This document shows positions 1 through 33,178 of a stretch of 33,318 bases of DNA, in pieces. The notes beneath the pieces are model-generated. The model was not told where the DNA came from. It worked only from the letters and a program-made list of their open reading frames with translations, and did not search any database. The position numbers and the translations under genes were made by a program. Every line of letters starts with the position of its first letter. The stretch's first letter is position 1. Where the stretch lies: positions 1 to 33,318 of the forward strand of contig DASXQR010000037.1 in the NCBI GenBank assembly GCA_036507075.1, read 5' to 3'. This stretch comes from Acidobacteriota bacterium (GTDB lineage Bacteria > Acidobacteriota > UBA6911 > JACQSX01).

Positions 1-12
1 AGAGCCGCAATT

Positions 13-74
13 CCCACGGCTGCGCTTCGCTGCGCCGTGGGCTACAGGCTGGCGCCCGCCAAAAGGCGGCGGGC
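13..74. repeat. REP-like tandem GC hairpins
   Basis: CCCACGGC (13-20) pairs with GCCGTGGG (34-41), followed by GCCCGCC...GGCGGGC (54-74). The layout resembles REP sequences, but no cognate RAYT gene is in the window. Confidence 0.5.
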
Positions 75-139
75 TGGTGATCCACGGCTATTTAACTAAT
101 CGCCTTCTCGCAATCCCAAGAACTAATTTGGACAGGCGT

Positions 140-352
140 GACGGTCACGTGCACGTCAATGTCCACGCCGCACGTCCAAATGCTACGGGACAGATTTAGA
201 GAGAAAAAATCGCAGTTTAGAACGCATCATGTCAATGTTGATCGTCAGCGTTAACGTAGTCGTTGACGTCTATCGTTGACGTGCACGTGCACGTCAACGG
301 CTTTTTTCTTTGGTTGCGGCCTACGGCCGGGCTGTGCCTTTTGTGGTGAAAA
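140..352. repeat. Hexamer-array palindromic element (NACGTN period 6) followed by a REP-like hairpin and a 9-mer arm
   Basis: Left array CACGTGCACGTCAATGTCCAC (~147-167) and right array GTTGACGTCTATCGTTGACGTGCACGTG (~262-289). 261-347 is nearly the reverse complement of 4641-4725. Confidence 0.85.
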
Positions 353-380
353 CTCATACGCGAATTTACGCAATCAGGTA

Positions 381-1310
381 CTAATAAGACAATTTCAATT
401 TCGCTGCTTCCAGAAATTCAATTACGGCTTTCTGATATTCCTGCTCGTGGTCGCGATAGGCGCGGCCATGGCGCCGGCCGTTCAAAATCAGCAGTCGTTT
501 TACCCGACCGGCAGATTCCCGGTAGAGCTGCCGCGCATAGTCTGCCGGCATGCGCCGATCCTCTGACTGCGCAACAAACAGAACGGGGCGAGCCCCCAGT
601 TTTCTGTTGGCTTCGACAATGTCGACGGCGTCCCCGTCGAAATCTCCTCTCCACTGGATCAGGGCAGCAATTTCATCGGCGATCGGCCAGGTCGGCAAGC
701 GAAAGAACAGTCGAAAATGATGATCGACAGTCTCGCGAAATGAAAGAAAAGTGCTGTCGCAGATAACCGCGTCTACGGTCGGATCTTCGGCCGCCGCGAG
801 CATTGCCGAAGCGGCTCCCATGGAAATTCCCCACAAAATAACTCTGCTGTGCGGTTCCTTTTTGCGAATCCACTGCACGGCGGCAGCGATGTCCGATTTT
901 TCAGCGGCTCCAAACGTGGACTTGTCGCCGGTGCTCTGCCCGTGATGCCGCAAATCGAACAACAAGCCGGAAGCTCCCAGTCCGTGCATGAATGCCGCTT
1001 GAGGAAGCATCTCCACGCGGCTGCGATTCAGGCCATGACAATAGACCACGGCCAGCTTCTTCCCTTTGCCCGGAAGGTACCAGCCACGCAGGATAATTCC
1101 CGGAGTGCTGCTGATAAAGACCGATTCATAGGCGACGCTGAAATCAGAAGGCGTTTTCCCCAGCAGCGGATCGGGAAACTGGAAGCGTCGATTGACAGCG
1201 ACCGAGGACAACAGCAGCGGTCCCACGACAAATAACAGCAGAACCACAATGCTGCCCAGGATTCCGACCGTCCATCCCAACACCCTTCGCCAGCGTTTTT
1301 TTCTTCCCAT
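381..1310 (-). CDS. Membrane-anchored alpha/beta hydrolase
   Basis: N-terminal TM after MGRKKRWRR, HG oxyanion motif (YCHGL), nucleophile elbow GISMG, C-terminal Asp and His (EDRRM, GRRHG). Start placed at ATG 1310 because the upstream ORF extension reads through repeats. Confidence 0.85.
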   Translation of the reverse strand: MGRKKRWRRVLGWTVGILGSIVVLLLFVVGPLLLSSVAVNRRFQFPDPLLGKTPSDFSVAYESVFISSTPGIILRGWYLPGKGKKLAVVYCHGLNRSRVEMLPQAAFMHGLGASGLLFDLRHHGQSTGDKSTFGAAEKSDIAAAVQWIRKKEPHSRVILWGISMGAASAMLAAAEDPTVDAVICDSTFLSFRETVDHHFRLFFRLPTWPIADEIAALIQWRGDFDGDAVDIVEANRKLGARPVLFVAQSEDRRMPADYARQLYRESAGRVKRLLILNGRRHGRAYRDHEQEYQKAVIEFLEAAKLKLSY

Positions 1311-1359
1311 TTGAAGTATTTGCCGAACGCCGCAAGATTCAAATCTGGAGATCTGTTTG

Positions 1360-1506
1360 GCCACGAAATTCGCCACGAAGGCACAAAGACACGAAGGATC
1401 CAGCCGTCCATTTAGAAGTGTCACTTCTCGCCGACCTGGATCGAGTTATGAGAAGTGTCACCTCGAAATAAACACCCGACTCTTCGTGGCTTCGCGGCTT
1501 CGTGGC
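1360..1506. repeat. 9-mer-array palindromic element (CCACGAAG / CTTCGTGG) with two internal 13-bp palindromes
   Basis: Left arm GCCACGAAGGCACAAAGACACGAAG, right arm CTTCGTGGCTTCGCGGCTTCGTGGC. Internal GAAGTGTCACTTC (1415) and GAAGTGTCACCTC (1452). Confidence 0.85.
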
Positions 1507-1586
1507 TACCTGATTTGCCGTCAACATCCCGTAAAGTGTTCGCGTTCTTAGCGCTTTCGCGGTGAAAGTTGCACCACCGAAGTTCA

Positions 1587-1616
1587 TTGACGCCTTGCAA
1601 AAGCGGTGCATATAAT
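1587..1616 (+). promoter_or_regulatory. Sigma70-type promoter
   Basis: TTGACG-N18-TATAAT upstream of RBS AAGGAG and ATG 1655. Confidence 0.6.
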
Positions 1617-1654
1617 GCCGCACATTCCGCAATATATAACTAAGGAGCATTAAG

Positions 1655-2473
1655 ATGAAATCCCGGCTCTTGTTGTCTATGGCGATGACTTTCCTGCTTC
1701 TTTCGGCTTTCATCGGCTGCTCTAAACAAGAGAAGACCGGAGAAACTGCTGCGGAAAAGAAAGCGGAAGTCGTCCCCGGTGAAATGGTCCGGATTCCGGC
1801 CGGGGAGTTTATCATGGGCAGCGATGTTGCCCCCAACGGTGAGAAGAAGGCGGGCACCTACTCGCCGGCTCATAAGGTAAACCTGCCGGAATATTGGATC
1901 GACAAGTACGAAGTCACCAACGGCGAATACCTTAAATTTGTCACAGAGGGATCCTACAAACCTGAGGGTGACTGGCGAACCCACTACCTGATGGGCAAGG
2001 AGAACCTTCCGGTCGCGCAGTTGACGCTGAATGACGCCAAGGAATATTGCAAGTGGGCCGGCAAGCGCCTGCCGACAGAAGAGGAGTGGGAAACGGCGGC
2101 ACGCGGCGAGAAAGGACTGGATTACCCATGGGGCAACAAATGGGAACCGGAGCGGGCGAACACCTACGAAATGGGTCATCGGGAAAGGGTGGATGTCGGC
2201 TCGATGGCCGGGGACGTCAGCCCTTATGGCGCGCATGACATGATGGGAAACGTTGTTGAATGGACAACATCCGAATACAAGGCCTATCCCGGAGGACCCA
2301 AGAACCCCGATTACTCAAAGGGTTATTTTGTGGTTCGCGGCGGTTCGTGGGCCGTCTACGGCAATGATAAGAAGGAGCCTTACAAGATCTGGTTGCGCGG
2401 CGCCTATTTGCCAAAATCCCAGTATGGTATCGGCTGCCGCTGCGCGGGTGAGCAGGAAGTGAAGCCGAAATAG
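1655..2473 (+). CDS. FGE-sulfatase (SUMF1-like) domain lipoprotein
   Basis: Lipobox AFIGC. Motifs IPAGEFIMGS, IDKYEVTN, KRLPTEEEWE, DMMGNVVEW, RGGSW, GCRC. It lacks the catalytic Cys pair of true FGE. Confidence 0.9.
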   Translation: MKSRLLLSMAMTFLLLSAFIGCSKQEKTGETAAEKKAEVVPGEMVRIPAGEFIMGSDVAPNGEKKAGTYSPAHKVNLPEYWIDKYEVTNGEYLKFVTEGSYKPEGDWRTHYLMGKENLPVAQLTLNDAKEYCKWAGKRLPTEEEWETAARGEKGLDYPWGNKWEPERANTYEMGHRERVDVGSMAGDVSPYGAHDMMGNVVEWTTSEYKAYPGGPKNPDYSKGYFVVRGGSWAVYGNDKKEPYKIWLRGAYLPKSQYGIGCRCAGEQEVKPK

Positions 2474-2488
2474 GCGGGAGCCAGGATT

Positions 2489-2680
2489 AGTTCACAAAAA
2501 ACTTAACCGCCAAGAACGCCAAGAGAGCGCAAAGGACGGGGGCTGAAACTTGAAGTATGAAGGCACTACGCCTACGTCTGACGCGGTTTTACAGCACTTC
2601 ATACTTCAAGTTTCAGCCCCCATCCTTTGCGTTTTTCTTAGCGTTCTTGGCGTTCTTGGCGGTTAAGTTTTTTGTGAACT
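2489..2680. repeat. Long nested inverted repeat between convergent genes (outer 9-mer CGCCAAGAA, inner 7-mer TGAAGTA); possible bidirectional terminator
   Basis: 2489-2562 pairs with 2597-2680. The right arm has one extra 9-mer unit. Confidence 0.9.
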
Positions 2681-2705
2681 CGTAAACCCGCTAACCCGAA
2701 ACCCG

Positions 2706-4043
2706 CTAACCCCAATTTTGGCGCACATAGCTGAGCGCCTGTTCACGATCCTGAAGATCTCCTTCAAGTTGGCGGTCTTCCACATCGCTCAGGATTTCCC
2801 GAAATAGGGGGCCCGGTTTGAAGCCGAGCTCGATCAGGTCGTGGCCGTTGATCAACGGCGGCGGGTTGATTTTCTCCTTTCCAAACTCTTCGAGCTTCTC
2901 CCGGCAGAAGTAATAATTGTCCAACATCCCGTGGCTTGCGCTGCAGTCGAGTCTGTGAAGCTCCAGGTGTTCGTCAAAGTTCGGCTTGCGCAGAAACCTC
3001 TTCAGTTTCGCCTCGCGCATTTCCTGCACGTGCATGAAACGCATGTGGTTCTCGATCAGATCCACCACGCTGTCAATCAAATGATTTTCCATCCGCAGCC
3101 GTTTGCCGATCTCGCGGGCTATTGCGACTCCAACTTCCACATGCCCGTCGAACCGAATGCGATCCCGGACCTGAAAAGTCGCCGGTTTGCCCACATCGTG
3201 CAGCAGAATGGCCCATGCAAGCGGAGCCGAAAGAGGCCCCTGCGCCTTTTCGTACATCAACCGCGTGTGCGTAAAAACGTCGCCTTCAGGATGATACTCA
3301 GGCGGCTGCTCGATGCCGATCATGGCATGCACTTCCGGCAGTAAGACCTTCAGAAGCCCGGAGTCGCGAAGTAAATCCAGGCCCCTGGCGGCGTGGCCGC
3401 TGGTCAGGATTTTCTCCAGTTCCACGCGGATCCGCTCTCGACTGACGCCCGCGATGTCACCGGAACTGGCGATCACCGCCTTCCACGTTTCGGATTCCAC
3501 CTGAAATTCGAGCTGCGCGGCAAAACGAACGGCGCGCAGGATGCGCAAACGATCCTCACGAAACCTTTCAAACGGATTTCCTACCGTGCGCAACACCCGT
3601 GCCTGAAGATCCGACTGCCCACCGACGTAATCGAGCAACTTTCCCGTAAACGGATCCAGGAACATCGCATTGATCGTGAAATCGCGGCGCCGGGCGTCTT
3701 TGACCTCATCCGAGAAGCGGATAGAACTGGGATGGCGGCCGTCGAGATACTCGGAATCCTCACGAAACGTGGCTACTTCAACGTTCTTACCGTCACTGGG
3801 GATCATTACCACGCCGAACTGAGCGCCCACGGTGACGGCGTTGGAAAACAACGAGAGGATCTGGTCTGGTTTGGCGTCGGTTGCCAGATCGACATCCGAT
3901 TCAGGCCGCATTCGGCCCAGCAGGTAATCGCGCACGCTGCCGCCGCAAATCAGAATGCGATGGCCCGCATCCCGAAGCGCGGCCGCGATGCGCGCGGCCT
4001 GCGGGGCGCTGGAAGAAGGGAGTTGCTCCAGAAAAGACGGCAT
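2706..4043 (-). CDS. cca: CCA tRNA nucleotidyltransferase (class II, with HD domain)
   Basis: GGSVRDYLLG..DVDLAT, DARRRDFTINAM, EDRLRILRAVRF template motif, loop EDSEYLDGRHP, HD domain (HT...LLHDVGK). Confidence 0.85.
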   Translation of the reverse strand: MPSFLEQLPSSSAPQAARIAAALRDAGHRILICGGSVRDYLLGRMRPESDVDLATDAKPDQILSLFSNAVTVGAQFGVVMIPSDGKNVEVATFREDSEYLDGRHPSSIRFSDEVKDARRRDFTINAMFLDPFTGKLLDYVGGQSDLQARVLRTVGNPFERFREDRLRILRAVRFAAQLEFQVESETWKAVIASSGDIAGVSRERIRVELEKILTSGHAARGLDLLRDSGLLKVLLPEVHAMIGIEQPPEYHPEGDVFTHTRLMYEKAQGPLSAPLAWAILLHDVGKPATFQVRDRIRFDGHVEVGVAIAREIGKRLRMENHLIDSVVDLIENHMRFMHVQEMREAKLKRFLRKPNFDEHLELHRLDCSASHGMLDNYYFCREKLEEFGKEKINPPPLINGHDLIELGFKPGPLFREILSDVEDRQLEGDLQDREQALSYVRQNWG

Positions 4044-4081
4044 GGTCTGTAATTTTTCGACTGAAGAAAACAAAAACCGCT

Positions 4082-4575
4082 CACGTGCACGACCACGTCA
4101 ACGTCCACCGAATACGCCCACGCGTCACGTTGGTCGTATTCAGAATTTCATCATTTTAGACAACATCGACACGATTCGAACAAGAAGTTCGCTGCCGTGC
4201 CTTAACTTGTCCGACTGCGCCAGGTTCAACACTGCACAGGCATCCAGCACCGCGCCGCACTCCATGGCTGAGCCCCTGGCAATGCCGAAATAGCGCGACC
4301 GGTCTGCCTCGCTCGGCTTTCCCACTCCTTCAGCAATGTTCTGCAAAATCGATAGAGCTGCTCGTTTTAGCTCATCCGTAAGGAAGGAGTAGCCTCGAGA
4401 AATTCTCTGCACGATGATAGCGACCAGCGCAAGAAACTCAATGGCACATTTGTAGACATCCAGTTTTTGATAGCTGAGCATTTTCGCCTCCTGGTGCACA
4501 TAACTGTCCAAGGGGCAGTTCTGCGAAAGTTTTTTTGTCGACGTAATCGTGAACTTTGACGTGGTCGTGCGCGTG
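4082..4575. mobile_element. Putative element: four-helix-bundle gene bounded by hexamer-array inverted repeats
   Basis: 4082-4108 CACGTGCACGACCACGTCAACGTCCAC matches the reverse complement of 4549-4575 at 24/27 nt. Mobility is inferred. Confidence 0.55.
4140..4481 (-). CDS. Four helix bundle protein (23S rRNA intervening-sequence protein family, Avd-like fold)
   Basis: MLSYQKLDVY..L.DELKRAALSILQNIAEG..RYFGIARGSAMEC..LLVRIVSML. RBS GGAGG before ATG 4481. Confidence 0.92.
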   Translation of the reverse strand: MLSYQKLDVYKCAIEFLALVAIIVQRISRGYSFLTDELKRAALSILQNIAEGVGKPSEADRSRYFGIARGSAMECGAVLDACAVLNLAQSDKLRHGSELLVRIVSMLSKMMKF

Positions 4576-4582
4576 GACATGG

Positions 4583-4792
4583 ACGGCTTTTTCTTTGGTT
4601 GCTGCTATTTACCTTGTGCCTGTGTGGCGAGTATGTTCTTACCACAGAGGCCCGGCCCGGCCATAGGCCGCAACCAAAGAAAAAACCGAGGACGGCCACG
4701 TGCACGTCAACGATAGACGTCAACGTAGACGTCAACGACCACGGCCACGTGCACGTGGTCGTAGCCGATAAACGTCGACGTTGACGTAATCG
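4583..4792. repeat. Back-to-back composite repeat plus an empty hexamer palindrome
   Basis: TTTCTTTGGTTGC..CTTGTGCCTGTGTGG (4589-4627) faces ACCACAGAGGC..GCAACCAAAGAAA (4641-4683). CACGTG/GTCAAC arrays at 4696-4790. Confidence 0.85.
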
Positions 4793-4883
4793 GCTGTTTT
4801 CTGAAATCTTGTTGAAAAAACAAGAAGTTGCCAACTTGTTACATTGAGGGCACGGAGATCTTTCAAGTCAAACAAAAAAATTT

Positions 4884-4910
4884 GGAACTATTGCACCCCG
4901 AAACGTGAAT
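4884..4910 (+). promoter_or_regulatory. Possible autoregulatory ECF promoter (GGAAC...CGTGAA)
   Basis: A GGAAC -35-like element and a CGT-containing -10-like element upstream of the ECF sigma gene. The spacing is atypical. Confidence 0.35.
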
Positions 4911-4945
4911 TAACTATAACCGCGCGACGAGAGCACAAGGTCGGG

Positions 4946-5563
4946 ATGGATTTTCAAGAGCAGCGCAGCGACGAAGATTTAATGCGGGAGATAGAGGCCG
5001 GCAGCGAACAGGCTTTTGTCCAGCTCTACAGGCGCCGCCAGCCGGGAATTTACCAGTTCGCCCTCAGGATGAGCGCTTCCACGCTGATTGCAGAAGATAT
5101 CGTGCAGGAAGTTTTTATGACGCTGGTTCGAGAACCGCTACGTTATGACCGCGAAAGGGGCCCGGTTGTCGCCTACCTTTATGGCATCGCCCGCAATCAA
5201 ATACTGCGGAGCCTCAATCGAAACCGCAACAAAGTTTCGGTGGTGGAAGGCGACGCAGCGCAGTCGTGTTCCGAATCTCTGGTTTCGACCGACGACCCCC
5301 TCGGCGATTTAACACGCAGCGAAACGATCGACGCGGTGCGGCGAGCGGTGATGGCCTTACCCCAGCACTATCGGGAGGTCGTTGTGCTTTGCGATCTGAA
5401 CTCATTGAGCTATGCCGAGGCGGCCACAGTTCTGGAATGTGCCATCGGGACGGTACGCTCGCGGCTGCATCGCGCGCACGCGCAACTCTCGCAGAAATTG
5501 CGCGGGGCTGGCAAAACAGCTTCTCTTTCGGAGAAATTGGCTACGGTGAGGTGTTCGGTATGA
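4946..5563 (+). CDS. ECF RNA polymerase sigma factor
   Basis: Region 2 AEDIVQEVFM..YLYGIARN and region 4 LPQHYREVVVLCDL..SYAEAA..GTVRSRLHRA. Confidence 0.93.
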   Translation: MDFQEQRSDEDLMREIEAGSEQAFVQLYRRRQPGIYQFALRMSASTLIAEDIVQEVFMTLVREPLRYDRERGPVVAYLYGIARNQILRSLNRNRNKVSVVEGDAAQSCSESLVSTDDPLGDLTRSETIDAVRRAVMALPQHYREVVVLCDLNSLSYAEAATVLECAIGTVRSRLHRAHAQLSQKLRGAGKTASLSEKLATVRCSV

Positions 5564-6435
5564 ATTGCCGAGAAATTGATTTCATTCTTCCCGAACTGGC
5601 ACGTGGCAGTGCTTCACAAGGAATTGATCCATCAGCCGCGCTGCAGCACCTCGAAAAGTGCGGACGTTGTCGGTCTCTGCTGGAACAGGAGCGGTCCCTG
5701 GTGGAAAAGCTGAATTTCCTGGCCGCTGCAACAACACTTGCCGCCTCTGTTGAAGTCGAGGAGCGTCTACGGGCTGCTTTCAGGCGATCAGCAACGCCCG
5801 CACCGGGTGTCACGCCAGCGCTGATTAGAACTGCTTCGGTTTGGCGGCTGCGCGCATGGGCAGTGGGCGGCAGCGTCGCTGCAGCCTTGCTGTTGGTATT
5901 GCTGCTGCCGAAATTCGGTTCCGGAGCTTTCCTCGGACACCGCAAAAATTTGCCGCCGCGCGGGAATGATTCTCGGGTAGACCAGCCGGCTTCCGGCAAG
6001 GATGCGACTCAGGCGGCAGGCAGGCTCGGGTTGCAGCCATCCCGGGATGCAACGCGCCGTGGCGCCATCCTTGAAGGGCACAGAACCGCTGCCAGTTTCC
6101 GGCGCATCTCGCACGGTCACGGACCGCGGCGGGCATCAGCGATGAGCGACCAGGTGACTCAGGCGGGCGCAGTGGCTTTGGGGCCCGGTGAAGATTCGGC
6201 CGCTCAGGCTCAGGAACAGGAAATCACTTCGGACTTCTTCTCGCTGAACTACGACGCCGGTTCGAACGCAGTCGACGCGGGACAGTTAATCCGGGTGAAA
6301 ATGCCGCGTTCTTCACTGCTCTCTTTTGGACTTCCGATGAATGTGGAACGTGCCAGCGAACCGATTCAGGCCGATGTTCTGGTGGGTCAGGACGGCCGGG
6401 CTCGGGCCATTCGTTTCGTCAATTTCAGGCGTTAA
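5560..6435 (+). CDS. Zinc-finger (ZAS-type) transmembrane anti-sigma factor
   Basis: MNC..HLEKCGRC motif, single TM (AVGGSVAAALLLVLLL), ATGA overlap with the sigma stop codon. Confidence 0.85.
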   Translation: MNCREIDFILPELARGSASQGIDPSAALQHLEKCGRCRSLLEQERSLVEKLNFLAAATTLAASVEVEERLRAAFRRSATPAPGVTPALIRTASVWRLRAWAVGGSVAAALLLVLLLPKFGSGAFLGHRKNLPPRGNDSRVDQPASGKDATQAAGRLGLQPSRDATRRGAILEGHRTAASFRRISHGHGPRRASAMSDQVTQAGAVALGPGEDSAAQAQEQEITSDFFSLNYDAGSNAVDAGQLIRVKMPRSSLLSFGLPMNVERASEPIQADVLVGQDGRARAIRFVNFRR

Positions 6436-7624: not shown

Positions 7625-7789
7625 GAACTTTTCACCACAAAGGCACAAAGAGCGCAAAGCAAGACGTGGGGCAGGCAGAGGCCGGTCAGCTTTCCAAATG
7701 TAAACACGACAGGGGCTTTCGAAGCTGACCGGTCTCTGCCTGCCCCACGTCTTCCCTTCGTGTCCTTTGTGTCTTTGTGGTGAAAGTTC
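7625..7789. repeat. Nested palindrome: outer 9-mer arms (CACCACAAAGGCACAAAG), inner 32-bp REP-like inverted repeat
   Basis: 7661-7692 matches the reverse complement of 7722-7753 at 31/32. Outer GAACTTTTCACCACAAAG pairs with CTTTGTGGTGAAAGTTC. Confidence 0.9.
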
Positions 7790-13894: not shown

Positions 13895-14011
13895 GGTTAC
13901 GGGTTACGGGGTTTCGGGTTACGAGTTACGGAAATTTCCGCTGTAAAAGCGATTATCCGTCCTGACCGAAACTGGAAACCCGGAACTCGAAAACCCGTAA
14001 CCCGAAACCCG
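13895..14011. repeat. Inverted 7-mer arrays (GGGTTAC / GTAACCC)
   Basis: GGTTACGGGTTACGGGGTTTCGGGTTACGAGTTACG on the left and AAACCCGGAACTCGAAAACCCGTAACCCGAAACCCG on the right. Confidence 0.85.
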
Positions 14012-14101
14012 GTCGTGATCGTAGACGCGCCCGGGGATTCGAAATTCTGGTTCGTTCAGGCTAAGATACATACTGTCAGGGAATAAACGAAAAGGGGAAT
14101 A

Positions 14102-14659: not shown

Positions 14660-16114
14660 TTACGCGTTGTAGCTGGTCGACGATACCGTTCCGCCGCGGC
14701 CCGTCCAATTGGTGTGAAAGAACTGGCCTCTGGCGCTATCCAGGCGCTCATAAGTGTGGGCGCCGAAGTAATCGCGCTGGGCCTGAAGCAGGTTGGCCGG
14801 CAATCTCGCGCTCCGGTACGCGTCATAAAAATTCAATGCGGTTGAAAAGGCCGGAGCCGGGATACCTTTTTTTGCCGCCGTTGCCACGACATTGCGCCAG
14901 GATCGCTGGCAATCCTTGATTGCTTTCTGGAAAAACTTGTCCAGCATCAGATTGGTAAGCTTCGGATTATTGTCGAAGGCTTCCGTGATCTTCCCCAGAA
15001 AGCGGCTGCGGATGATGCAGCCTCCGCGCCACATCAGGGCGATTCCGCCATAGTTCAGGTTCCATTTATATTCCTGCGCCGCGGCCCGCAGCAGCATGTA
15101 GCCCTGCGCGTAAGACACAATCTTCGAAGCGTAGAGCGCGCGTCGAATGTCCTCCACAATCTTTGTCCGGTTGCCCGCGATTTTCGATTTGGGTCCTTTA
15201 AGCTTCCTGGATGCAATCAGACGTTCCTCTTTCAGCGCGGAAACACTGCGCGCGTAAACCGCTTCAGCCATAAGTGTGATTGGAATTCCGAGTTCCTGAG
15301 ACGAGATCACCGTCCATTTGCCGGTGCCTTTCTGTCCTGCGGTGTCCAGGATCTTCTCCACGAGCGGCTGGCCGTCGGCTTCCTTGAAGGCGAAAATGTC
15401 GCGGGTGATTTCAATCAAGAACGAATCCAGCTCTCCCTTGTTCCACTCGGCGAATACCGGGTGCAGCTCGTCGGCCGTCATCCCCAGTCCATCCTTCATC
15501 AACTGATAAGCTTCGCAAATCAGTTGCATGTCGCCGTATTCGATCCCGTTGTGGACCATCTTGACGTAGTGACCGGCGCCGTTTTCACCTACCCAGTCGC
15601 AACAGGGGGATCCGTCTTCCACTTTGGCTGCAATTTTCTGGAAGATTTCCTTGACGTGGGGCCAGGCGGCGGGCGATCCCCCGGGCATTATGGAAGGTCC
15701 CCGACGGGCGCCCTCCTCACCTCCTGAGACGCCCGTCCCGATGAACAACATGCCCCTGGACTCCAGGTAGCTGGTGCGCCGGATGGAATCCTGAAAAAGC
15801 GAATTTCCTCCGTCGATCACAATGTCGCCCGGTTCCAGGTGCGGAACAAGCCTCTCGATAAATTCATCCACGGCGCTGCCCGCTTTTACAAGCATCATCA
15901 CCCGCCTTGGCCGTTTCAGATGCGCCACCATTTCCTCGATCGAATGCGCGCCGATCACATTGGTTCCGCGCGCGCCGTCGGAAAGAAATTCGTCAACTTT
16001 CGACACGGTCCGGTTGTAAGCGACCACGGTGAAGCCGTTGTCGTTCATGTTCAGGATCAGATTCTGGCCCATTACCGCCAGGCCGATTAGTGCGATGTCT
16101 GCTTTCGGTTCCAT
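14660..16114 (-). CDS. gnd: NADP-dependent 6-phosphogluconate dehydrogenase (decarboxylating)
   Basis: [62 protein letters not shown]. Confidence 0.98.
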
Positions 16115-16182
16115 AAGAGAGTCCTCAAAAAGAGGCAGATAATACAAGAGTGGCGGCTCTGCCGGAATAAAAAATGCTCCCC

Positions 16183-16289
16183 AATGCGGATTTCGGAATG
16201 CGGAATGCGGAATAGGTTAGAGATTTGGACTCGGCCTGCAAGACTCAACCTGGGATATATTCCGCATTCCGCATTCCGAAATCCGCATT
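16183..16289. repeat. Perfect 32-bp inverted repeat made of 7-mer CGGAATG units
   Basis: 16183-16214 is the exact reverse complement of 16258-16289, including the variant unit GCGGATTTC. Confidence 0.95.
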
Positions 16290-16301
16290 CGGAAGGGCGC
16301 A

Positions 16302-20703: not shown

Positions 20704-20873
20704 TTGAACCGCCAAGAACGCTAAGAACGCTAAGAATTTCTTTTTCGGTCCGGCAGTTTAAATGTTACCGCACTTTACACGTGACACTTCTTCAGAACTT
20801 TCAATTGCTTGCACTCAGCCGGTTGTTCGGACCCACGATGAGCTCAGCGTTCTTGGCGTTCTTCGCGGTTCAA
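20704..20873. repeat. 9-mer-array palindrome (CGCYAAGAA) with ~110-bp spacer
   Basis: TTGAACCGCCAAGAACGCTAAGAACGCTAAG pairs with CTCAGCGTTCTTGGCGTTCTTCGCGGTTCAA. Same unit as 2505-2524. Confidence 0.9.
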
Positions 20874-29079: not shown

Positions 29080-29124
29080 TGAAATTAATTTCGTGATTTC
29101 TGGTGGTCGCCGGTTTAGTTATGC

Positions 29125-29538
29125 ATGAACCACCAGGACAACAAGCAAACGATCGAGCCCGTACCCTATTCATTAGACCAGATAGCAAGACAGGTTGTTA
29201 GTGCGGCCTGCAATGTGCATTCATCGCTGGGGCCGGGCCTCCTGGAGAGCGTCTACGAAGCATGTTTGGCCCATGAAGTAGGCAAACGAGGTCTGTCGGT
29301 ACGGAGACAGGTGCCTGTACCGGTAAATTACGACAACGTGCGCCTGGATCTGGGATTTCGCTTAGATTTGGTGGTTAAGGAGGCATTGATTGTAGAGATC
29401 AAGGCAGTGGATGCACTGCATCCCGTGCACTACGCTCAAATGATCACTTACCTGAAACTTACGAACCTTCGCCTCGGGCTATTGATCAATTTCAATGTTC
29501 CCTTGATCAAAGAAGGAATTCATCGAATAGCCTTGTAG
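29125..29538 (+). CDS. GxxExxY protein (PD-(D/E)XK nuclease-like)
   Basis: VHSSLGPGLLESVYEACL, RLDLVV...IVEIK, H.AQ..TYLK...GLLINFN. Confidence 0.95.
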   Translation: MNHQDNKQTIEPVPYSLDQIARQVVSAACNVHSSLGPGLLESVYEACLAHEVGKRGLSVRRQVPVPVNYDNVRLDLGFRLDLVVKEALIVEIKAVDALHPVHYAQMITYLKLTNLRLGLLINFNVPLIKEGIHRIAL

Positions 29539-30785: not shown

Positions 30786-31056
30786 AAGGCCGGAAGGCGG
30801 AAGGCGGAAGGCGGAAGGCGGAAGGCGGAAGGCGGAAGGCGATAAAGCCGACGACGTCTACGTGCACGTGACACCTCAACGTCCACGTCTACGATTACGT
30901 CCTCATATGGTAACCTTGGGCAACGCGTCAGCGTCGACGTTGTCGTGGACCTTGACGTGTCACGTGCACGTGGTCGGTCGTTTTTCGCTTTCCGCTATCG
31001 CTTTGTGCCGGAGTGACACTTCCAGATCGATTAAGAATCTTCGTGGCTTCGTGGCG
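30786..31056. repeat. Nested repeats: (CGGAAGG)x7 outer arm, hexamer palindrome inside, then a 13-bp motif and an orphan 9-mer arm
   Basis: Seven perfect units at 30791-30839. 30860-30893 matches the reverse complement of 30938-30971 at 30/34. GGAGTGACACTTC at 31010 and CTTCGTGGCTTCGTGGC at 31039. Confidence 0.9.
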
Positions 31057-31069
31057 ATTACCCGAAGGA

Positions 31070-31948
31070 TCACTTCTCCGCAGAAAGCGCCGCTTCCCAA
31101 ACCAGCATTGCTTTCTTGCGCGCCGCCCCCCAGCGATAGTTACCCACAATTCCTGATTTTCGAATCACCCGGTGGCAAGGGACCAGAAATGCGACCGGAT
31201 TCGAGCCTACAGCCGTGCCTACGGCGCGAGAGGCCGAGGCCTGTCCCACCGCCTGGGCCAGATCTTCATAGCAGCAGACCTGACCGGAAGGAATGCGGAG
31301 AAGCGCTTCCCAGACTTTGATCTGAAAGTTCGTCCCCTTGAGAAAAAGAGGCACCTTTTGCCTTCCGGGTTCGAAAATCTTCTGCGCGAAAGATCGGGTG
31401 GCCATTGCGTCCTCTATCAGCCCGGCTCCCGACCAGCGATCTCTCAAGTCCGCGAGGGCTTCCTTTCTCTCCCCGGGACAGAAGGAGAGGCCACAAATCC
31501 CTCTCTCTGTGACTGACAGCAGGCATTCGCCAAACGGAGAGTCATGAAACCCATAGCGGATCCGCAACCCGGCGCCATTCCGCTTGAATTCCGCCGGTGT
31601 TACGGCCTCGATTGTTACAAACAGATCATGCAGCCGTCCGGGCCCTGAAAGACCCGCCTGATAAGCGGTATCCAGCAGGTCACGGGATTCCTGCAGCAGC
31701 CCTTTTGCATATTCGACGGTCAAAAACTGCAAAAACCGTTTCGGGCTTATGCCCGCCCAGCGCTTGAACAGCCGCTGGAAGTGGAAGGGGCTCAATCCTG
31801 AATTGCCGGCGATTTCTCCCAGGCTTGGTTGTTGTTGGAAATTTTGCTCGATATAACGAATCGCGCTCTCGATTCGGGAGTAATCAGAGGAGAGACTCAT
31901 ACCTGACCGTGAAATGTTGCGGCTTGTGGCAGCAGTTTGCAATTGCAT
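31070..31948 (-). CDS. AraC-HTH / methylated-DNA--protein-cysteine methyltransferase (Ada-like, no N-terminal Zn domain)
   Basis: LSPFHFQRLFKRWAGISPKRFLQ HTH, GTNFQ.KVW.AL, RAVG.A...NP...VPCHRV active site. Confidence 0.92.
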   Translation of the reverse strand: MQLQTAATSRNISRSGMSLSSDYSRIESAIRYIEQNFQQQPSLGEIAGNSGLSPFHFQRLFKRWAGISPKRFLQFLTVEYAKGLLQESRDLLDTAYQAGLSGPGRLHDLFVTIEAVTPAEFKRNGAGLRIRYGFHDSPFGECLLSVTERGICGLSFCPGERKEALADLRDRWSGAGLIEDAMATRSFAQKIFEPGRQKVPLFLKGTNFQIKVWEALLRIPSGQVCCYEDLAQAVGQASASRAVGTAVGSNPVAFLVPCHRVIRKSGIVGNYRWGAARKKAMLVWEAALSAEK

Positions 31949-32037
31949 ATTGAAACCTCTCTAAAAAGATTCGACGCAGGTAAAATAGCGAATCAAGCCG
32001 CTTTTCTGCCACCCGATTCTTGCTGTCCAGGGAAATA

Positions 32038-32200
32038 CTTATTCACCACAAAGGTTGGGAGTGGAGAGACGGCCTGAGGGCCGTCTCAGCTTGGCAGTTG
32101 GCTCGACATGACAAAGGCCACGACGCCCTTGGCGCAGCTTTGCTACGCCCGAGACGGCCCTCAGGCCGTCTCTCCATTCCCAACCTTTGTGGTGAATAAG
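32038..32200. repeat. REPIN-like element: 50-bp inverted repeats, each holding a REP-like hairpin and capped by a 9-mer-family terminus
   Basis: 32038-32087 matches the reverse complement of 32151-32200 at 49/50. Internal hairpin GAGACGGCC-TGAG-GGCCGTCTC. Confidence 0.9.
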
Positions 32201-32215
32201 CTTTTCCGGGTTTCG

Positions 32216-33086: not shown

Positions 33087-33169
33087 AATGCGGAATGCGG
33101 AATGCGGAATACGGAATAAAAGCTGTCAGTTGTCCGTTGTCCGTCGTCAGTTGTCCGTTGTCGGTTGTC
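33087..33169. repeat. Two stacked unpaired 7-mer arrays (CGGAATG; TGTCMGT)
   Basis: AATGCGGAATGCGGAATGCGGAATACGGAATA, then TGTCAGTTGTCCGTTGTCCGTCGTCAGTTGTCCGTTGTCGGTTGTC. Confidence 0.9.
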
Positions 33170-33178
33170 TGCGGTGCG

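Follow-up and report, generated by a model that had tools for sequence, protein, structure and literature searches.

A repeat-bracketed four-helix-bundle gene in an Acidobacteriota genome carries a motif shared with DNA-uptake genes

Introduction

Proteins of the PF05635 family are common and without known function, and the role of RAYTs and of short tandem repeat arrays is an open question. The stretch of 33,318 nucleotides analysed here (the window; contig DASXQR010000037.1) belongs to an Acidobacteriota genome of 6.1 Mb, which was found in soil metagenomes and in no RNA run among those listed, and holds a gene of this family bracketed by inverted hexamer arrays, while further palindromes of the same arrays stand without a gene. 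How a gene whose product shows no catalytic motif comes to be expressed and to multiply along with its repeats is the question this locus raises. No paper on the cassette or on the regulon described below was found in the literature (most subscription papers and supplements lay outside the search), and the accessible parts of PMC3686654, PMC12378983 and PMC4679880 hold nothing on these cassettes.

Anatomy of the cassette

The cassette lies between cca and an ECF gene and is composed of the following features:

4073..4108, plus strand: downstream arm, inverted hexamer array with outer end AAAAACCG
4110..4141, no strand: short internal hairpin GAATACG...CGTATTC between stop codon and downstream arm
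4140..4481, minus strand: four-helix-bundle gene, 113 aa, TIGR02436 / PF05635, from HMM profile scores and structure model
4487..4492, minus strand: ribosome-binding site AGGAGG, read in the sequence
4498..4536, minus strand: two-box motif of 39 nt, from matrix score; likely host late-competence promoter
4537..4592, minus strand: upstream arm, hexamer array of CACG-type units with outer end AAAAAGCCG
4594..4655, no strand: degenerate carrier left end GGTTGC with octamer-type palindrome CCACAGAGG / CCTGTGTGG

The open reading frame starts with an ATG at 4481 behind the AGGAGG site, and its product exceeds both profile cut-offs with 64.3 bits for TIGR02436 (cut-off 24) and 67.6 bits for PF05635 (cut-off 33.8), the latter being its sole domain match. 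The arms 4082-4108 and 4549-4575 are reverse complements at 24 of 27 positions. For comparison, 300 randomly placed pairs of 100-nt windows, 440 nt apart, reached 13-20 positions in their top inverted match over 27 nt. Shifting the match by one 6-nt period leaves 17 or 19 of 27 positions and other shifts leave 2-7, a fall-off with 6-nt periodicity as expected of arrays. The similar outer flanks, AAAAACCG from 4073 and CGGCTTTTT at 4584-4592, are both present as well, so that the arm-enclosed four-helix gene described in an earlier note on this DNA is confirmed as a real observation.

The AlphaFold model of the protein (pLDDT 94.5) is all-helical with four long helices. Foldseek superposes it on XCC0516 (2gsc) with a TM score of 0.93 and an rmsd of 1.2, and it superposes on BT_0352 (2rld) too. 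The Avd-like fold proposed previously holds in that the model matches Avd (4dwl) at a TM score of 0.79, at 9% sequence identity. Judging from the five chains of entry 2gsc, the protein is probably a pentamer. It carries Ser28 and Leu46 where relatives almost always have proline, and with both conserved prolines gone it is possibly a relaxed copy. A homologue of 79% identity (L032) retains the two prolines. Neither a catalytic motif nor a HUH motif was found in the protein and no transposase is encoded in the cassette; mobilisation, if it occurs, would presumably take place in trans.

By eye, no target-site duplication or conserved insertion site is evident in the flanks. The nearest of the metagenomic cca relatives sought for an empty site reached only 56%. 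Short contigs matching this cassette allele were detected in two other soil runs; contigs of four other soil runs gave no informative joint, the listed joints stemming from other repeat copies.

Gene-less copies and a carrier element

The host genome contains 159 hexamer-array loci, 83 of them with inverted arms. The window holds three gene-less palindromes of this type and one complete copy of a second repeat element, termed carrier element here:

141..334, minus strand: gene-less sister with carrier left end, upstream arm 249-302 and downstream arm 141-178
4657..4841, plus strand: carrier element, complete copy, left end ...GGCCGCAACCAAA, right end ...GAAGTTGCCAACTTGTTA
4680-4792: gene-less hexamer palindrome with the whole interior deleted, inside carrier element 4657-4841
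30842..30990, no strand: stand-alone gene-less hexamer palindrome, adjoining an AAGGCGG heptamer array

The earlier note had listed three empty sister elements. Gene-less palindromes are indeed present at about 140-300, 4680-4792 and 30842-30990, but they are not all simply empty: the first holds a promoter remnant and the 3' tail of the gene (at about 203-243 of the sister 141-334, inverted relative to the arms), and the second lies within a carrier. A DNA profile built from seven hexamer-clade coding sequences found, besides the gene itself, 15 loci in the genome with E values up to 0.0012. All 15 gene-less loci match just the final 38-65 nt of the gene and 12 of them were flagged beside an array; the retention of the gene tail only points to internal deletions. 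In several copies the gene tail directly follows a stretch made up of upstream arm, decayed promoter and ribosome-binding site, while others have lost more. Pairwise identity among 16 such copies ranges from 58 to 96% with a median of 80%. In a relative (G003:C274) the middle of the gene was lost between two similar short words, and the same kind of decay is seen in remnants, promoter included, that Y1 genes and another four-helix clade have left. These data support the descent of the gene-less sisters from gene-bearing cassettes by internal deletion. Decay also affects the genes themselves, as three of the seven four-helix loci of the host genome are frameshifted or partial. In two other genomes (L032:2845-3070 and L033:2270-3029), a gene-tail remnant and an arm stand in tandem just after an intact hexamer cassette.

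The carrier element, which had been missed previously, inserts into CACCACAGAGG repeats. Genome-wide there are 107 strict left ends, 88 of which sit at one fixed spot in the octamer repeat; the octamer-type palindrome near 4594-4655 is the usual target of the element, and another left end of it is found in the window at 307-334. The strict left ends are followed by hexamer arms in 38 cases, by another REP in 34 and by heptamers in 20, and thus the carrier captures several repeat families that are unrelated to each other. A coding partner was not detected between carrier ends up to 3.5 kb apart.

With 63 of the 159 hexamer-array loci beside a carrier, part of the copy number and spread may be hitch-hiking. 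One could go further and regard the cassettes as passive passengers that are brought in by ordinary transformation, erode through deletion and multiply solely as carrier cargo or by slippage and gene conversion, their protein being inert on the repeats. The passage from carrier end to hexamer arm in 38 of 107 cases, the fixed octamer spot and the carrier end with which most of the listed tail-bearing copies start all speak for this explanation, which we nevertheless consider unlikely: 96 of the 159 loci lack a carrier core by the strict pattern (some having degenerate ends), 37 of these 96 have inverted arms, and the explanation does not account for the protein tree, arm orientation and promoter data given below.

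Palindromes are also found in further gaps of the window, at 2489-2680, 7629-7789, 13895-14012, 16177-16295, 20704-20873, 32031-32207 and 33087-33175. They are built from 7-9-nt arrays or RAYT-type REPs, and several of their units recur beside other four-helix, GxxExxY or Y1 loci.

Protein clade and repeat type

The seven four-helix loci of the host genome are flanked by differing repeat units. In a tree of 68 intact proteins, from which partial, frameshifted and stop-containing entries were dropped, the 17 proteins whose repeat unit is 6 nt long all fall into one clade (support 100/98), found in three phyla, i.e. Acidobacteriota, Desulfobacterales and one Bdellovibrionota genome. Repeat period requires 6 changes on this tree compared to 50 for host genome; as related entries share labels, this result indicates linkage and not co-evolution. 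Among 52 four-helix loci with scorable arm orientation, the arms are inverted in 45 and direct in 4. Neither the match of period and clade nor the prevalence of inverted arms would be expected of passive passengers.

The gene is not tied to cca either, since two cca loci of the family lack an upstream four-helix gene on inspection; the six closest homologues are found in unrelated genomic settings. Two outcomes had been named beforehand as speaking against a repeat-linked mobile cassette, namely paralogues without any link between protein clade and flanking repeat, and stable synteny with cca in the absence of repeats. The link and the lack of synteny reported here are the reverse of both.

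Altogether, the distribution of the four-helix cassettes is patchy, multi-copy and non-syntenic. Relatives of the gene occur in 4 of 72,556 plasmid records and in 0 of 50,697 phage records, and the viral contigs searched gave 3 distant matches. Five near-identical hexamer-clade genes with CCTGGA units lie on contigs C3 and C6 of genome G043 (L176, L180, L182, L188 and L191) and, by their similarity, appear to be a recent expansion. In another genome a split four-helix gene directly follows radC (G041:C29:139463-140253, L226).

A motif shared with late-competence genes

The upstream regions of four-helix, GxxExxY and Y1 genes in the host genome have a two-box motif in common, TTCGCA-N17-GTTATGT, with a fixed spacing of 19 nt between TTCG and GTT. 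In the cassette it consists of an A/T tract, TTCGCA (4527-4522), 17 nt and GTTATGT (4504-4498). A matrix trained on 18 such upstreams finds 62 sites of at least 18 bits in the host genome, compared to 0-1 for column-shuffled matrices. The 57 sites of at least 24 bits comprise the 18 seeds, 13 sites before host genes and about 10 before further cassettes or remnants; the remainder precede unannotated or unrelated genes. The host genes are ssb, recA, comM/yifB, dprA, comF, comEC, comEA, a GspH-type prepilin gene, radC, an ERCC4-HhH gene, recQ, recG and uvrD, whereby the names ComF, ComEC and YifB were assigned by best hit and domain content, as their whole-protein scores fall short of the NCBIfam cut-offs.

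Sets of the type comEA, comEC, comF, dprA, comM, radC, ssb, recA and prepilin are characteristic of late competence. SOS genes of the host genome lack the motif, with lexA reaching 5.5 bits and two uvrA genes, dinB and an imuB-like gene all scoring below 0. The gene set behind the motif is thus a late-competence and not an SOS set. Readings of the motif as CRP-S or dif site were discarded for lack of a second half-site and for wrong spacing. Likewise, GTTC-N7-GTTC, which we take to be the Acidobacteria-type SOS box, was found neither before lexA nor before 22 recA genes of other genomes.

In the reverse direction, a matrix trained on the 13 host-gene sites gives the cassette motif 4498-4536 a score of 35.9 bits and reaches at least 22 bits within 200 nt of 6/7 four-helix, 5/6 GxxExxY and 8/12 Y1 matches, a test that is partly circular because the training genes were themselves first found with the element matrix. 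As background, 15 of 4134 ORF upstreams reach 15 bits. Counting two longer genes with the motif further upstream, 10 of the 12 Y1 genes carry it; the other two are a fragment and a match at a contig edge. At 12 of the 57 strong sites the second box is separated from an ATG by exactly 5 nt, a distance consistent with a -10 box and leaderless mRNA, and the G-T-T at this position resembles ECF promoters. The two-box motif is therefore probably the late-competence promoter, and the cassette, sharing it with DNA-uptake genes, is likely expressed during natural competence. The motif had been overlooked in the earlier note, whose interpretation as a whole is upheld in part.

A second locus of the window carries the motif:

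29125-29538, plus strand: GxxExxY PD-(D/E)XK gene with motif at 29081-29119 and ATG 5 nt downstream, followed by an octamer palindrome

By its motif this gene is a putative co-regulated neighbour of the cassette. Two other open reading frames of the window are not among the motif matches, one from the vicinity of 14660 to 16147, which we take to be gnd-like, and an ordinary Ada-like host gene (AraC/Ogt) at 31070-31948. Elsewhere, unannotated proteins are encoded directly behind the motif at L075:423-1304, L074:2145-2768, L081:321-1736, L076:276-632 and 1698-2069, L084:856-1125 and L268:416-916. One of the unannotated motif-led proteins has a marginal NucS match (E 0.01), and an atlas search with the L075 protein returned unnamed clusters only. 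They may represent new competence genes or further cassette families.

The same motif data would suit domesticated competence accessories, i.e. four-helix, GxxExxY and RAYT genes that handle or screen incoming DNA to the benefit of the host, with the palindromes as bait or landmarks and cassettes that rarely move. The near absence from plasmids and phages also agrees with this proposal, which has been made for RAYTs by Bertels et al. in a passage of PMC5581495. We judge it improbable, given the patchy, multi-copy and non-syntenic distribution and the frequent decay, with three of seven loci broken and promoter-bearing four-helix and Y1 remnants common; patchiness and decay together look like selfish-DNA turnover. 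Passive passage, in turn, leaves unexplained why the same host promoter occurs in many clades.

The motif in relatives and a candidate regulator

In relatives of the same family the motif precedes 8/11 (G001) and 8/9 (G003) four-helix loci of several clades, the single locus of G004 (1/1) and, weakly, both loci of G002 (2/2). It is also present before independently located family genes (comM 3/3, dprA 3/3, radC 3/4 and recA 4/4, with weak scores in two cases). Motif variants stand before comM, radC or recA in other lineages of the class, where some cassettes carry the local variant. Of 25 family loci above the null, 24 prefer variant A, whereas in the variant-B lineage 4 of 22 four-helix loci exceed the null and 3 of those 4 prefer B, the exception encoding a protein 79% identical to that of the window. 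As judged from these sites, the variant seems to track host lineage, variant B having been defined after inspection of the sites and the compared genomes being kin. Outside the class, none of 30 four-helix, 30 comM and 30 dprA upstreams scores 10 or more. The arms abut the start codon in many cassettes there, as in those of the Desulfobacterales, hexamer clade included. Since the motif is absent from many cassettes elsewhere, the cassette family can spread without this promoter; the link between motif and cassette is real but local.

Among 34 sigma-70 region-2 matches in the host genome, a divergent ECF at G000:C17:71536-72081 (L073:2037-2594) stands out by having one match each in 13 of 21 genomes searched. 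Of 14 loci viewed, 10 have it next to a gene that we name coaD from a motif, and it lies near recG. The two-box motif occurs in its 3' end, before a zinc-finger/TPR-type anti-sigma gene, with 32.7 bits in the host genome (G000), 14.3 in G007, 8.6 in G002 and 7.4 in G001. A divergent motif copy at the locus is conserved in three family genomes and precedes a small ORF of about 80 aa. However, the ECF was not found in G005, G008, G024, G032 and G043, and four of these genomes do contain the motif or a variant of it. The accessible portion of the ECF classification paper PMC7826278 has no passage on competence. With some reserve we put forward this conserved ECF beside coaD and recG as a possible competence sigma factor of the class.

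A possible route of spread

As the motif lies between upstream arm and gene and hence inside the arms, the cassette's own transcript would carry only one arm and the long stem could form solely on single-stranded DNA or read-through RNA, which favours ssDNA over an RNA hairpin. Folded as ssDNA, the cassette strand reaches -101 kcal/mol (z = -3.6), with 0 of 100 shuffles as good. The RNA intermediate and the reverse transcriptase partner contemplated in the earlier note find no support. The genome has two RVT_1 matches, one full and one short, both on contigs other than that of the window. The full match proved to be a group II intron RT/maturase, and it lacks the motif (score below 0). No RT was seen in the window, nor a template/variable repeat pair beside the gene. 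Next to the group II intron RT at L077 (G000:C146), which is read from the minus strand, a motif in back-to-back orientation leads an M78-like ORF.

An RNA-level element akin to 23S rRNA intervening sequences or DGRs, the arms pairing on RNA, with excision by RNase III or RT copying aided by the Avd-like pentamer and re-insertion as cDNA, is accordingly quite improbable for this locus. Such an element would fit the fold match to Avd and the occurrence of the PF05635 family in rRNA intervening sequences, noted in a passage of PMC10053308, and many promoterless cassettes of other lineages would be transcribed whole within operons. Apart from the missing arm on its own transcript and the type of the full RT, the cassette argues against it by its location, which is not inside a 23S rRNA gene and has no rRNA match; Rfam gives no match at gathering score in 1-6000, its four weak matches all falling below.

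Our preferred reading, held tentatively, is that of a selfish cassette with a motif shared with DNA-uptake genes, likely expressed in competence and likely spreading via its arms folded back on ssDNA. Anatomy, shared motif, clade-period link and the deletion series towards gene-less copies are direct observations, and competence would supply ssDNA together with RecA, DprA and ComM, which favours spread by transformation. An ECF-type sigma factor would read the two-box motif in competent cells, and the Avd-like pentamer would bind ssDNA, incoming or displaced, that has folded back at repeats of the pentamer's own type. The fold-back could then be inserted with the host recombination proteins RecA, DprA and ComM, existing repeat arrays serving as anchors, while cutting would be supplied in trans by co-regulated Y1 (RAYT/IS200-like) or GxxExxY nucleases. 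Internal deletion at short repeats would give rise to gene-less copies, some of which would have multiplied inside the separate carrier element.

A bolder and rather doubtful generalisation is that repeat-bracketed four-helix, GxxExxY and RAYT cassettes form a transformation-borne selfish guild with a captured competence promoter, the pentamer acting as sequence-specific receptor of ssDNA fold-backs and the unexplained 6-9-nt tandem repeats of bacterial genomes being its debris. If the pentamer is such a receptor, an enzyme-less cassette could use the uptake and recombination machinery of its host. Placing three repeat-associated gene families behind a DNA-uptake motif names both a condition, competence, and a substrate, ssDNA, and sketches, for one class of Acidobacteriota, a competence regulon and a candidate for its sigma factor. 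The competence wiring of the cassette is the new and testable part.

Comparison with known systems

RAYT-REP/REPIN systems resemble the cassette in having a gene on the chromosome that lies between palindromic repeats of its own, many gene-less extragenic copies and a rare occurrence on plasmids and phages, and the Y1 genes of this host share the motif. A further resemblance is the link to competence that is probable for the cassette, the E. coli RAYT yafM being reported to rise when competence is induced (passage of PMC5581495 citing Sinha 2009); the same paper also suggests a defensive role for RAYTs (Bertels et al. 2017). In contrast, RAYTs are Y1 HUH transposases with single REPs, whereas the cassette protein is all-helical and Avd-like, has no enzyme in cis and lies between tandem hexamer arrays. 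Paired inverted heptamer repeats of Xanthomonas likewise consist of short tandem arrays that face each other in pairs in intergenic DNA, but the passages of PMC4692102 describing them name no four-helix gene and report no general link to mobile elements.

23S rRNA intervening sequences (S23p; XCC0516, 2gsc, and BT_0352, 2rld) share family and fold as well as a gene in the loop of a long stem, while the cassette is intergenic and has a promoter-like motif inside the arms and dispersed deletion derivatives. The link of PF05635 to Avd appears in a passage of PMC10053308. DGR Avd is similar in fold and, by way of 2gsc, in its expected pentamer, and is itself known to bind nucleic acid, yet sequence identity is low, as stated above, and the cassette has no adjacent RT, template or variable repeat in view.

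The gene-less copies, formed by internal deletion with both ends kept, are comparable to MITEs and PATEs, which are non-autonomous deletion derivatives; here, however, the parent has no transposase and no target-site duplication was evident by eye in the flanks. Late-competence regulons such as SigX/ComX and Sxy/CRP-S are known, and the present set is like them in uniting comEA, comEC, comF, dprA, comM, radC, ssb, recA and prepilin under one motif, but unlike them in the motif itself, in its occurrence in Acidobacteriota, in its putative regulator and in the inclusion of three repeat-bracketed gene families. The cassette thus works like a RAYT-REPIN system without the enzyme and, beyond its protein family, is a member of none of the systems compared.
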